From positions 10,860,581 to 10,924,580 of the forward strand of contig OZ037767.1 in NCBI GenBank assembly GCA_964035545.1: a DNA stretch of 64,000 nucleotides, in the 5' to 3' direction. Positions 52,301-58,300 of the stretch are shown piece by piece. The notes under the pieces are model-generated. The model saw only the letters and a list, made by a program, of their open reading frames with translations. It had not been told where the DNA came from and did no database searches. The DNA comes from Bugula neritina. Lineage: Eukaryota > Animalia > Bryozoa. Every line of letters starts with the position of its first letter. Position 1 is the first letter of the stretch. Position numbers and translations under genes: made by a program.

Positions 52301-55300
52301 ACACCAACTACCACTACAACACCAACTACTACCACAACACCAACTACTACCACAACACCAACTACAACTACAGTACCAACTGCCACTACAACACTAACAA
52401 ATGTCAAAACAACTACTACTTCAGTTACCTCGAAGCCTGTGCAAAACAAAAAAAGATTTCGCTTCAAATTGTTTAAATTGTTGGTTCGCATTAAACAATT
52501 TGTCAACCAGACCTTTGATTGTACTGATGATAATCTCAAGAATACTGACTCTGCTACCTACCAGCTGTTTGAGGTAAACATTGTTTCTTTCTGCGCATGT
52601 CTATATTGTCATCATTTCCCAAACTATGCAAGTTTCAAGATGCAGTCATAGAATTTTATACTTAGTTGTGACTTGTGGATTATGTATATTATAGTTGCAT
52701 AACTTGCAGGCTGTACTATATGCTATAGAGTATGTAAATTTGTATGCAGAGTTTGCTATGTGGAATCATTTATGGCTACGTTAGAAACGTAAGATCCTGT
52801 GGACCGTTTACCGTATCTTGTGGCGATATTACTGCTGAAAGTAATATTCAAGTAGTTGAGAGAGATAATGACTACCCAGTCAATGCTGCACCAGCTGACC
52901 ATTTGCAGTTTCTACAGCAAATCTCATCCATTCTCAAGGATTCACTAATAGGTATGTCTATGGGTGTGCAGTGTATGTGCTTTATGGGTTTTGACTTCAT
53001 TATAAACCTTTAATTATATATGAACCTGCGACAAAAAAGCTTTTTATTCAATAAAAACTTACCGTATTAAAAGAATTAAGTGTAAGGCCACATGATGCGT
53101 TTTACACGCGCCTGAAGTGCCAGAAAACCCATTTAGCCCAAAAATGAGACGTCATGTGCGGAATTTTCATGTGCGTTTAACATGCTGAGCGAGAAGTTCG
53201 GCAAGCCCATGGGTGTTTGATATAATTGGCTTATTATCATTTAGCGAGCACACTTTTTTATTTTAATTCAAGTTTTAGCTTTTAGCAAACTGAATTAAAA
53301 CAGTTTCATATAGTTTGCATTTTCGCTTTTATGATCACTTTGCCGATGACATAGTTTTAAAAACAAATGTCTGTAGGCGAGCTGTAAAGTTTAACGCTAA
53401 CATCATTAGCTAATAAATTTCCTCACTCGCAACACACGCACTGTGTGTGGCAGGTCTGAACAGGTTTTCTCGCACATTACAAACGTGTAAAACGTGTCGT
53501 AGGGCCCTACGCTTAAAGACGGCAGTTTTTATGCGAAACACAGTCTAGAAATTAGGCCACATCATATAAATTTGAATAAATTATTAAAACATCTAAACCA
53601 TAAAATATGTTGTTGTACCTATGAAAGTAGAATTTTTAAATCTCCTTCCCCAACTCACAGCAGTATCTACTTTTAGAACTCTTTAAATCTACTTTGGTAT
53701 TTTCAGTTAATATATTAGAACTTATAAAGTTTTAAAACAATGTTTAAGAGTTAAAAATGAAAATGAAATTTAGCTGATAGTTACTAAGAAGTTGCCAGTG
53801 TCTTGAAAGAAATCTGACGCTTTCTTGTAGAGAAAATTTTTCAGTAATTTGGATGTATTTTATTTTATTAGTGAAAATTAATAAATTTCATTGCAAATTG
53901 AAATTTTTGCTTTGAAAAGGTAAGATATAATATAGAACTCATTTTTTATAGAGAAGCAATTTCACAAAACGTGCATCCATTGAAGGAGTAAGCGGCTGTG
54001 TTACAGCATAGATTTGCTAAAATATTACAACAAGCAACATATTTTTTATTTCACAACATTAATTGTTATTGTTTTGTATTATAAATATTTTAATTTACAA
54101 AAACAGTATATTTTTCAATTCCACCACCTTTGAGTAATCTCTATAAGTTTTCTCTTGCATCTAAAGATCTATTTAAAACTTGATATTTTCGCAGTTGTTG
54201 ATGAAGTACCAGTAGTATCAGATGTGAATGAATGTGAAAACTCAGATCTGAACGACTGTAGTCCTAATGCTGAGTGTACCAACACAGATGGATATTACAT
54301 TTGTACTTGTAATGAAGGTGAGTGATGATGGTAGAATATACGCATAAGATCTGCATGTGCCCGAAAGAGCGCAGTAATATACAACTGTGTGTTATATATT
54401 ATAAATTATATTAACATTATGGTAATAAAATTTGAATAACATATTAACATAATATGATAACATAATATCTGTAGCTTTTTACTTTTATACGTTATTTGAT
54501 GACCTAGAAGTATGTAAGGATTTGCAAAATGACTATTTGTTTGCCGCTTATACTTAAAAACGTTTCTTAAGCATCAACAAATTCATCCAAATTATTTAAC
54601 AAGTTCAACTTAAAATATGGCAATTGTAGAGGTTGTAATGTAAACTCACCCTGTTGAGCTCTGGCTATCGAGTGCCTCGTGTAGGCTTACGTCCGGTTAG
54701 CTATTCTCTTAAGTCACGTGGCCACCGACCTCGCGTAGCCTTGGTACCTGCTATCGTTCGTCAGTAGCTAGTCAATATCGGATCATCTTACACGCTCCCT
54801 CCTTACAAAAGAGAAGAAGAGCACAAGAGCACATTTCTCGTAACATATATCCATATTATCACCATTTCTATTAGTTTGTCACTTGAGGTCAGTAATTGTT
54901 TGCTGGTAGTAATTCATCATATGTCCAGAGTAAATACTACCTAGGAGTATGGGTACTTAACTGGGTTGTTCCTCCATCTCCACGTCACTTGGCAGTTCGT
55001 CAGGCTCATCCTCCTCCTTCTTGACAAGGTCTTCCCAAGTCTCAGGAACCTCAGCCGACTCTACCCGCTCTTCCAGGGACTGTACCTCAGGGGACAGCAC
55101 CTGTTGGTTCATCAGATCGTCCGAGAGTGCCAAGAAGGCGCTCTCTGAATCAGGATAGCCTAATCCACCGGCGGTGGAACTAGGTTTATCCTGTTTACCG
55201 CAACGCAATTCTGTTATCTTATTGTCTGTGTGGGGTTTTTCGAGGGTCTCAATAGACTGCACTCGACCCCTACCCAATGAAGCAACAACAGGGGTCTTCT

Positions 55301-58300
55301 TAGACTGCACCTGTCGGCTTATCAGGTCTTCCGGGGGTGCCTGTGGGGCACTCACGGGAGCACACGGCATGGAAGCAGCAGGGGTTCTCTTGGACCACGC
55401 CTGCCGACCAGCTAGGCTGCTCGCGAGTACCTTCGAGGCGCTCCTGGGGGTTGCATCGAGCACTGATGAGCGTTGGTGTTCAACCAGCGGTAGTGCCTTC
55501 TGCATATACTCCATCGCTGTCCCAACAAGCTCAGCTGCGCGAAGCTCTTGCTTCAAAGCAGCTTCTTGTCGGTCCAGCTCCGCTCTCTTTTTCGCAATCT
55601 CCTTGAACTTGGAGTTGTATGCTTCTTTATCTATCAGCTTTTGCTTGGTCACACCATTTAGGAAGAATGACATCATATCATTGAGATTCATTCCTGGGCT
55701 TGGCATAGTCTCATCGGTCTTCGACTTTTTGGTCACTGCATTCGAATACAGTGCAGTGTCAGCACCAATGGAGTCGGGTCTTTTTCTTTTGGCCGCGTAG
55801 AGAGAGCCGCCGGCATCACATGTCTCCATTACGTGACCCTGCATATTGCAGAATCGACAGTAGTCGGTGGTGCAGCTTTCTGCAAAGTGGCCCTTTTGGC
55901 CACAGTTGTAGCATCTGTTCTGCGGGCATCCTGAAGCAGAATGGTCTCTCATTGCTCTGCACAGGAGGCAATAAATGTCTCCAGGTTTGCCATAGACTTT
56001 CTTAGGCTTGTCCTCCGCTTTTCGCTCAGGCGCCTTGTCTGTCGTCTCTGGCTCATTCTCAGTGGGCTGTGGTCTTCGTCGCGGTCGTCTCTTGCGTGGG
56101 ACCTGAATGAACTGGTCTCCTTCATCCGTTTTAGCTTCTGGCAGATCCGGTTTGCTCGCCATTTCTGAAAATAGAAAGAAAGAAAAACATTAGCAATACA
56201 TCATGTCAGGGTTCTGTGGGGCCCAAACAGTACGGCCGGACCTAGTGACAACAGGAACATCATTCCTGTTGTCAGAAGGATGCCCGCCTGGGTCATCGGG
56301 TGCTAGTTTATCTTGTCGTGTGCTTAGTCTGTCTTCAGCAGGCTGTTCGTCATCTTCCGATTCGGTTTCCTCTTGCAGGGGGTTAAAATCATCTTGGCAG
56401 TCATAAAATACATCTTCTGTCTCTGTGTCGTGTAATAGAAATAAGTGTTTTCTATTCCTACGTACTTCACTACTACCCATTTTTACCCAGAAGCTATCCG
56501 GGGATGGGTCTTCTCTTAAGACCGTACCGTTGCATCCTTTGTCTGTTGGGGATTTAACCCATACTTTATCGCCCGGTTCCAGTTTAGGAAGGGGTCTGGC
56601 TCTGTATTTTGTGTCCCATTTCGATTTCACTAGGTCACGGTTTGCCTCCTCCTTATCTTCAAAATCGTTATAGTCTATGTCTGCTGCAAAGTAAGGTATT
56701 CCTAGAGTGGAGCGAATGGGTCGCCCAAACATCAATTCGCTAGGGGAGTAGCCCGACTTTAACGGAGTTGTCCGATAAGCAAAGATGGAGCTGTCCCTGT
56801 CGTCGGCCTTGCGCCAGAGTCCCTTGACTACTTTCACTGCGCGTTCTGCCATATCATTTGACTGTGGGTACCTAGGGCTGCTAGTTACCAGTCTCATGCC
56901 GTTGGCTTCTGCAAATTTCCAGAATTCTTTGCTGTCGTAGCACCCTCCGTTGTCAGTCCGGAGTTCTCTAGGAATTCCGAAACGGGAGAAGACTTTCCAG
57001 CAGGCTTTTATCACGGCTCCTGAGGTCTGGGACTCTATTTTCATTGCTTCTATCCATCTGGAATAATAATCTATAAACACAACATATAAATCATTATCAA
57101 ATGTAAACAGGTCAGAACCTACTACCTCCCAAGGGCTTGAGGGTAAGTCCCTTTCAACCATTGGTTGGTGCCTAATGTCACTGTGTTTGATGCAAATATT
57201 GCATGTCTTAACCAAGTTAGCTATATCTCTACTCAGGCCCGGCCACCAGAAGTGGTGTTGAGCTCTTACTCTACATTTATGTATACCTTGGTGGCCTTCA
57301 TGGTACATTTCTAAATATCTATTGCGTAATGATTCAGGAATATATACCCTGGACTTATACAATAGCATCTTATTATAAACTGATAGATAATGTCTGACTA
57401 TGTAAAGCTGTTTAAGCTCACCTGTCAAGCCTCTCCCATTTCTTGGCCCCTCATGCAGCGCAAATTCTAGCGTTTTTGTGCTGATGGGGTCTGTACTCAT
57501 AGCCTTCAGAATAGCCTCCTCTCTCGTATCGTAGAGGTTTGTGGCCTCTATGATAGAGTTCACGTAGCACTCGACCTCATTGTCTTCGTACAACTCCCCC
57601 ACGTTGTCTAAGACATTGTTGGGCCTACTCAGTGCATCAGCTATAAACATGTCTTTGCCAGGCGTATGAAAAATAATGTAATCATAACGCATAAGGCGTA
57701 AGCGAAATCGTTGTACTCTGACTGGTAGGCTAGACAAGTCTTGCTCGCCCAGTATAGAAACAAGAGGTCTATGGTCCGTTTCTATCTCGAAACTCCTGCC
57801 AACCAGATAAAAATCAAATTTTTCGCAGGCCCATGTAATAGCTAGGGCCTCTTTTTCAATCATGGCATAGCGGGTTTCCGTTTCAGTAAGTTTTCTAGAC
57901 GCGTATTCCACTGGTTGCCAGAGTCCAGTGTCATTAAGCTGTAAGAGGGCAGCGCCTAACGCGTTCTTACTGGCGTCTGCCGAGACTCTGTGTTTCTTGT
58001 TTAAGTCGAAAGCACACAGTATTGGAGACTGTGACAATTCTGTTTTGATGTCTTGGAATGCCTTCTGTTGTTCGCACCCCCAATACCACTCGGCAGTAGC
58101 ACCCGAAACGGCATAAATTGGAGTACATATTTCGGCTATTTTGTTGCTAAACTTACTCAGGTAATTCACTAAACCACTAAACCTCCGTGCTTCTTTTTTT
58201 TGAGGTTGGTGGGGTGAGGCCTAAAATAGCTTCGACTTTCGCTGGGTCAGGTTTTATACCAGTGTTGCTGACCAGGTGACCGAGAAATTTAATTTCTGCA

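Follow-up and report, generated by a model that had tools for sequence, protein, structure and literature searches.

Within the 64,000-nt window that we analysed from the bryozoan Bugula neritina (assembly GCA_964035545.1, contig OZ037767.1, positions 10,860,581 to 10,924,580 of the forward strand), a Ty3/Gypsy long terminal repeat (LTR) retrotransposon of around 6.3 kb occupies positions 54634-60965 on the minus strand and carries a third open reading frame (ORF), ORF3, after pol. Here we describe the anatomy of this element, two joints that connect splice donors near its 5′ end to a single acceptor directly in front of ORF3, and the conserved family of proteins to which the ORF3 product belongs. 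Comparisons at the level of sequence indicate that ORF3 is a real, spliced and conserved accessory gene; non-env accessory ORF3s are already known, and we have not found this protein family described. The function of the protein is a more tentative matter: the reading that we prefer, with slightly less than even confidence, is that of a nuclear RNA-binding factor that would help unspliced genomic RNA to escape splicing, retention or decay, in a manner resembling CERV, the accessory protein of the Caenorhabditis elegans Gypsy element Cer1, but with a different build. The features of ORF3 and of its splicing, in window coordinates, are:

54957..56162, minus strand: ORF3 (start at 56162), an intact frame of 401 amino acids between pol and the 3′ LTR
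55818..55970, minus strand: three zinc knuckles, residues 65-115, with the signature G-x2-G-x3-C-x2-C-x3/4-RDH
55779..55790, minus strand: basic motif KRKR, residues 125-128, a candidate nuclear import signal in which K127 and R128 are at least 90% conserved
55644..55685, minus strand: conserved amphipathic helix, around residues 160-173, a candidate export signal or docking helix
55470..55628, minus strand: long helix and predicted coiled coil, residues 179-231, from the structure model
56163..56194, minus strand: branch-like motif overlapping the pol stop, then a pyrimidine tract and the acceptor AG (56166-56165), the best of 258 YAG sites
60817..60823, minus strand: splice donor 1, G/GTGAGT (GT at 60822), inside the 5′ LTR and upstream of the primer-binding site
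60628..60634, minus strand: splice donor 2, G/GTAAGA (GT at 60633), in the leader and downstream of the primer-binding site

The 27-nt spacer between pol and ORF3, which an earlier sequence-only reading of this stretch had taken for a 3′ splice site, fits that role well: the 20-mer upstream of its AG is the most pyrimidine-rich (19/20) among the 258 YAG sites of the sense strand. Eight of the 19 listed public sequencing runs were examined, all as assembled contigs; six are RNA-type and two (X15 and X16) are DNA-like. A joint at the predicted acceptor (56164-56166) is present in five of the six RNA-type runs, which come from three studies, in line with the spliced subgenomic form that had been anticipated. 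The donor-1 joint (60823/56164) occurs in X3, X4 and X1, has GT-AG ends (CT..AC on the plus strand) and removes the primer-binding site; it is listed in neither DNA-like run. The donor-2 joint occurs in X5 and X6 by way of 11 bridging letters that fit a shorter variant of the leader, in which 21 nt of the window leader are missing; the variant is seen directly in X16, and its donor corresponds to 60633. The ORF3 contigs of X3, X4, X5 and X6 end at 56165-56166. Four donors had been proposed in the leader, of which that at 60633 is seen, in the shorter variant; no joint is listed for those at 60751, 60727 and 60659 in the runs examined, an absence that is no proof, and the donor in the LTR at 60822 had been missed. 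The gag ATG is downstream of both donors, and ORF3 has an ATG of its own. With the donors in front of gag and the acceptor behind pol, we infer that the whole gag–pol region is an intron with strong sites.

Other contigs and copies show further traces of these sites. A 903-nt contig of X15, around 88% identical to the window, consists of 235 nt of other sequence, the LTR, 121 letters and ORF3 from its acceptor onwards (window 60966-60772 joined to 56165-55814); because X15 is DNA-like and covers intronic flank, this contig probably represents a spliced form that has returned to the genome as a copy. The donor-2 joints could stem from transcripts of such retrocopied forms, themselves derived from splicing. 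One contig of X3 exits the LTR at donor 1 (60823) into unrelated sequence, which suggests that LTRs of this element family splice into other, perhaps host, exons. In X3-X6, a short piece of the ORF3 coiled-coil region (55491-55557) finds a match in the interior of another contig, flanked on either side by long dissimilar sequence. Copies in X1, X6 and X16 have another base at 56194, which makes the branch motif over the pol stop more canonical, and 26 of the 45 closest pol proteins have a Tyr or Phe within their last two residues, which might reflect the overlap with the branch motif. In X1, X3, X4 and X6, contig depth over ORF3 exceeds that over gag–pol; contig depth cannot rank genes and was not used.

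An exhaustive protein search with ORF3 found 154 proteins with an E value of at most 0.001 (150 of them listed), most of the lower matches being generic knuckle proteins; a word-indexed search yielded only three near copies with the single protein and nine proteins with a profile, and it is the exhaustive search that revealed the family. We built an alignment of 25 sequences (A1), comprising the window protein, two near copies and 22 high-scoring diverged matches from the exhaustive search picked by eye; fragments of near copies, repeat proteins and short sequences were excluded. In 15 columns, all 25 sequences have the same residue. Of the 22 diverged homologues, 18 are full-length (at least 295 amino acids), are 21-28% identical overall to the window protein and have a common layout: knuckles, KR motif, amphipathic helix, long helix or coil, and acidic tail. 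Mean identity of these 18 to the window ORF3 is 44% in the knuckle region versus 16-23% elsewhere, and all three knuckles are kept in 17, P0028 lacking the first His. The family signature occurs in 30 of the 153 proteins tested, and none of the 20 representatives looked up bears an informative name. ORF3 appears to recur in related elements rather than to be a one-off. When the profile is used without its knuckles, its helix-and-coil part matches the more distant proteins P0081, P0063, P0050, P0040 and P0137, and the family may be wider; in P0081 and P0050 the first knuckle is of the canonical type. DNA around relatives was found neither in viral contigs (A2, A3) nor in prokaryote genomes (A2).

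The link of ORF3 to pol was assessed indirectly, through the source and exact size of the longest contig, compared between 39 records of the ORF3 family and 99 of the 120 listed pol relatives; two ORF3 records of the element's own family were excluded, as were 21 pols on contigs above 30 kb or without a size. Five exact matches were obtained (P0011/P0166, P0012/P0170, P0022/P0171, P0025/P0175 and P0162/P0173), whereas 600 shifted controls gave 0.18 on average and never more than 2. All five linked pols are within the ten best pol matches, the five accepted pairs all fit inside their own contigs, and five of the eight ORF3 records on contigs of at least 6 kb were matched to a pol. When 114 members of ten additional pol clusters were compared by eye, no genuine link was added and a single false one came up. 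This was the match between P0325 (1028 amino acids) and P0296 (401 amino acids), which we rejected, both being on 4075 nt, too short for the two genes; size matches can therefore arise by chance. The window pol and the five linked pols fall in one 12-member clade, with a support of 0.989 in FastTree (115 rows, six short rows having been dropped) and an SH-aLRT of 93 in a quick IQ-TREE run (48 rows), both trees being midpoint-rooted and made of unnamed relatives only. Within the 48-row tree, the ORF3 label was no more clustered than in shuffles (110/500). Over six pairs, identity in ORF3 varies together with identity in pol (Mantel r 0.66, p 0.0125). ORF3 is thus apparently common to one clade of related elements. 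The only named close pol relatives, P0206 and P0238 from the bryozoan Watersipora subatra, are too short for the tree (66% identity across 34% of the query and 61% across 40%, respectively).

Recurrence after pol in related elements had been put forward as a check on the sequence-only reading, and the 18 full-length homologues, five of them probably linked to close pol relatives, answer it favourably if indirectly; together with the pol clade they support a non-env accessory gene over a one-off capture. The outcomes that had been named as fatal to that reading (ORF3 absent from other copies or neutral in them, a one-off capture, or no spliced RNA) are not what we found.

The protein is as it had been described, an intact 401-amino-acid frame (56162-54957) in the env slot inside the LTRs, without signal peptide or membrane segment: its N terminus is hydrophilic, and the highest Kyte-Doolittle mean over 19 residues is 0.65. 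An env identity was rejected, as neither signal peptide, membrane anchor nor fusogen fold is present. The three CCHC knuckles start at residues 65, 84 and 102, the first having the expected CX2CX5HX4C spacing, and zf-CCHC is the only Pfam match. Confidence in the structure model is high for the knuckles and for a single helix spanning residues 179-231 (pLDDT 89-97 over ten-residue blocks 181-230), and the remainder is disordered, including the tail, in agreement with the coiled coil and acidic disordered tail predicted earlier (the acidity holds in the family). A similar helix (185-254) is modelled for the homologue P0034. Structural comparison with VIA-align gave generic coiled coils only (Z at most 5.6), the best ESM Atlas scores, 0.82 and 0.79, are leads only, and a homodimer prediction, in which the alignment was not used, scored 0.26 against a mark of 0.32. 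It is true of this copy, as had been pointed out, that ORF3 is its only undisrupted frame, but this carries no weight: at the lesion density of the copy (3 in 4326 nt) a 1206-nt frame escapes with a chance of 0.43, and we therefore rejected intactness as a sign of selection.

If gag–pol is an intron, full-length RNA must evade splicing and retention, which is the problem that CERV, by analogy, solves in Cer1: in the available part of the report on that element, CERV is needed for export of the unspliced RNA (PMC10309623). As described there, CERV is a Ty3/Gypsy accessory protein made from a spliced mRNA, with candidate nuclear import and export signals, a cysteine-rich putative RNA-binding part and a coiled coil, all of which recall ORF3. 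In contrast to ORF3, CERV has its first exons in common with gag, contains a C4-type loop along with H, M and G-protein-like domains, and lacks homologues beyond the nematodes according to the same portion of text (PMC10309623). ORF3, compared with CERV here by description, is located downstream of pol, starts from an ATG of its own, bears three CCHC knuckles and is modelled as knuckles and helices only. For ORF3, we infer that default splicing removes all of gag–pol and makes the ORF3 mRNA. On this model the basic motif would bring the protein into the nucleus, where the three knuckles would bind full-length element RNA, the long helix would serve for association and the conserved amphipathic helix would attract a host factor for export or protection; a class-3 export-signal pattern is found in this helix in 12 of 20 proteins versus 1.3 in shuffles. 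The best solved relatives of the knuckles, namely Air2, HIV Gag/nucleocapsid and Lin28, are RNA binders, which speaks for the RNA-binding step. Gag, Pol and packageable RNA would appear only after ORF3 had built up, making it a feedback regulator. Since donor 1 removes the primer-binding site, the donor-1 mRNA would not be copied back by normal priming, and since donor 2 retains it, the donor-2 RNA could serve as the template for an ORF3-only element. A more far-reaching version, which we hold to be rather doubtful, is that a Rev-like circuit evolved independently in a Gypsy clade from duplicated nucleocapsid knuckles, with a third gene gating export of the unspliced genome and with alternative donors giving either a dead-end mRNA or a packageable one that spawns ORF3-only satellites. 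If this were true, the choice between two donors would decide the fate of the regulator mRNA, a primer-less dead end or a satellite-spawning packageable RNA.

Several observations weigh against the reading that we prefer. The window ORF3 is one of the eight proteins of 20 without the class-3 pattern and fits class 1b instead, and such patterns are unspecific, because any amphipathic helix tends to fit one. Of the Arg/Lys clusters highlighted in the sequence-only reading, the Arg-rich stretch that recalls Rev (PRKRRPRRR) is present but sits in the poorly conserved N terminus (mean identity 0.19) and is not itself conserved; the conserved basic motif is K127-R128. The joints have a short side of 25-29 nt, under the 31-letter bar of the tool, the contigs carry no strand, the RNA label is guessed for five of the six RNA-type runs, and X14, the sole run recorded as RNA, has no joint, its contigs covering 11 of 30 bins. 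Selection on ORF3 within the family is weak and at best suggestive: the window and an expressed X4 contig differ by 14 synonymous and 17 non-synonymous changes (pN/pS 0.35-0.52, p 0.055), an estimate that uses the 31 listed differences, 33 of the 36 of the X4 contig being listed. The DNA around the diverged homologues was not found in metagenome contigs (P0001, A2), and the place of their genes after pol is only presumed. Finally, ORF3s in general, env included, are expressed from spliced messages, as stated in the accessible part of a study of rotifer elements (PMC5408684); splicing is therefore normal for any ORF3 and alone no pointer to export control.

The knuckles of ORF3 resemble those of the element's own Gag (14 of 34 positions identical, E 2e-07, with the same tight four-residue linker), which suggests that they arose by duplication of the gag knuckles and keeps a second explanation alive. 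ORF3 could be an auxiliary nucleocapsid-like protein that chaperones, localises or condenses genomic RNA in the cytoplasm, or that acts in primer annealing and particle assembly. Retroviral nucleocapsids are indeed the top Foldseek rows, though all are above E 0.001 and nothing in PDB or BFVD reaches that threshold. However, Gag still has two knuckles of its own, as had been correctly remarked, the similarity is mostly in the Cys/His pattern, no capsid-like fold is seen in the models of the window protein and P0034, and the basic motif after the knuckles is conserved. We consider an auxiliary nucleocapsid unlikely, at perhaps one chance in a few.

A counter-defence protein, which would shield element transcripts by imitating or sequestering the zinc-knuckle adaptors that the host uses in RNA decay or small-RNA silencing, is distinctly improbable in our view. 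In its favour, the best solved match of the family profile is Air2 (E 1.7e-12), the adaptor of TRAMP, but the match spans only around profile residues 68-136 and covers just the generic knuckle array. This array is what ORF3 has in common with Air2, Lin28 and retroviral nucleocapsid, whereas three features are peculiar to the ORF3 family: its variant first knuckle with RDH, its amphipathic helix and its coil. Outside the knuckles, the linked ORF3s have diverged far faster from the window than their pols (16-23% versus 58-65% identity). Fast divergence is common in genes engaged in conflict, but disordered regions diverge fast without any conflict.

More improbable still is a self-limiting role, in which ORF3 would bind element RNA or Gag, damp transposition and hold copy number at a tolerable level, and for which copy-number control in Ty1 offers an analogy: a capsid-less knuckle array made from a separate spliced mRNA could compete with Gag for RNA, but a benefit in cis accounts more readily for long retention across the clade. 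A neutral passenger, whether a one-off capture or a nested fragment without a role, is largely refuted and merits next to no credence, for although the within-family pN/pS is not significantly below 1, some near copies (P0003, P0004) are broken or have knuckle substitutions, and the context of the diverged homologues is only deduced, the 18 full-length open homologues keep their Cys/His ligands at such low identity (P0028 apart), contigs from three studies show use of the dedicated acceptor, and ORF3 is linked to one pol clade.

The env gene of errantiviruses lies between pol and the 3′ LTR and is expressed from a subgenomic spliced RNA; ORF3 resembles it in its slot after pol and its spliced form (contig joints with a 25-29-nt short side), and differs in having no signal peptide, membrane segment or fusogen fold. 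The ORF3s of bdelloid rotifer LTR elements are likewise third frames after pol, non-env and typically expressed from spliced messages, but they are GDSL esterases, DEDDy exonucleases or membrane proteins captured in a family-specific manner, and no zinc-knuckle ORF3 is reported in the accessible part of that study (PMC5408684). Conserved accessory genes also occur in envelope-less LTR elements of the Drosophila MDG1 group, where sORF1 is nuclear (bioRxiv 10.1101/2025.03.14.642691), and among the additional ORFs of plant LTR elements, where Grande GENE23 is nuclear (PMC7264820). These differ from ORF3 in being short or antisense and mostly upstream of gag or under their own promoter, with no knuckles reported in the available portions of the two texts, and sORF2 is a membrane fusogen (bioRxiv 10.1101/2025.03.14.642691, PMC7264820).

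The novelty claimed in the sequence-only reading was thus somewhat overstated, CERV being a spliced, export-promoting Gypsy accessory protein (PMC10309623) and non-env ORF3s being known in rotifers (PMC5408684), as far as the accessible text of each goes; the ORF3 family itself was not found described. Nor was a zinc-knuckle ORF3 in a Gypsy element found in the parts available of the literature searched, including PMC2774666, PMC7998251, PMC13524379, PMC6238403 and PMC4131045, and subscription journals, Repbase/Dfam entries or supplements could hold one. Few elements have a known export route for intron-containing genomic RNA, and CERV is the one element-encoded Gypsy solution that we found. 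If the export reading is right, ORF3 would be a second, structurally different and clade-wide accessory gene, and regulators of the complex-retrovirus type would arise repeatedly in the env slot; if ORF3 is instead a chaperone or silencing antagonist, it would still represent an unnamed conserved retrotransposon gene family. The sharp signature gives annotators a profile for ORF3s that could otherwise be taken for env or stray gag.

The remaining features of the element are:

60807..60965, minus strand: 5′ LTR, 159 nt, TG...CA, 100% identical to the 3′ LTR
60795..60806, minus strand: primer-binding site for tRNA-Ser, an exact complement of the 12-nt tRNA-Ser end given in a supplement row, the part available of PMC13524379
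59311..60516, minus strand: gag, with two CCHC knuckles at 59464-59559
56190..59310, minus strand: pol (PR-RT-RH-IN, by Pfam), with its stop at 56190-56192
54793..54804, minus strand: polypurine tract
54634..54792, minus strand: 3′ LTR, 159 nt, 100% identical to the 5′ LTR

Paired TG...CA LTRs, primer-binding site, polypurine tract and PR-RT-RH-IN order are all features of Ty3/Gypsy elements. In the available part of PMC3286476, the Mag lineage is described as having short LTRs and a tRNA-Ser or -Leu primer. The 159-nt LTRs and tRNA-Ser primer of the present element agree with this (PMC3286476, Table 1), although they are not exclusive to Mag, as do its two gag knuckles and lack of a GPY/F motif when set against the accessible text of PMC5408684. 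In these features, the element fits the Mag lineage to which it had been likened.

In this copy, gag has two in-frame stops (60433-60435 and 59770-59772) and pol a single frameshift near 58194. Copies in the public runs read differently at both stops and at the frameshift, and these lesions therefore look private to this copy. Gag and pol share one frame, with TGA then CTA between them (window 59305-59316, minus strand), a context that favours stop-codon readthrough; a gag–pol without a frameshift would be expected in the Mag lineage, and here the shared frame is interrupted by that TGA. No gag was found at the start of the 38 closest pol proteins among the matches listed, fused forms being outside the length range searched. 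The N-terminal piece of gag has no sequence match in PDB and a single weak match, to PNMA (E 0.005).

No target-site duplication is present (flanks ATATT versus ACCTC, 54619-54633 and 60966-60980) although the LTRs are identical, a point that concerns this insertion and not the element family. One contig of X15 joins both flanks of the element with eight other letters between them. The element lies antisense between EGF-like exons on the plus strand (51698-54323 and 61630-63358), in a host gene of repeated modules with a mucin-like PTTTTT tract.

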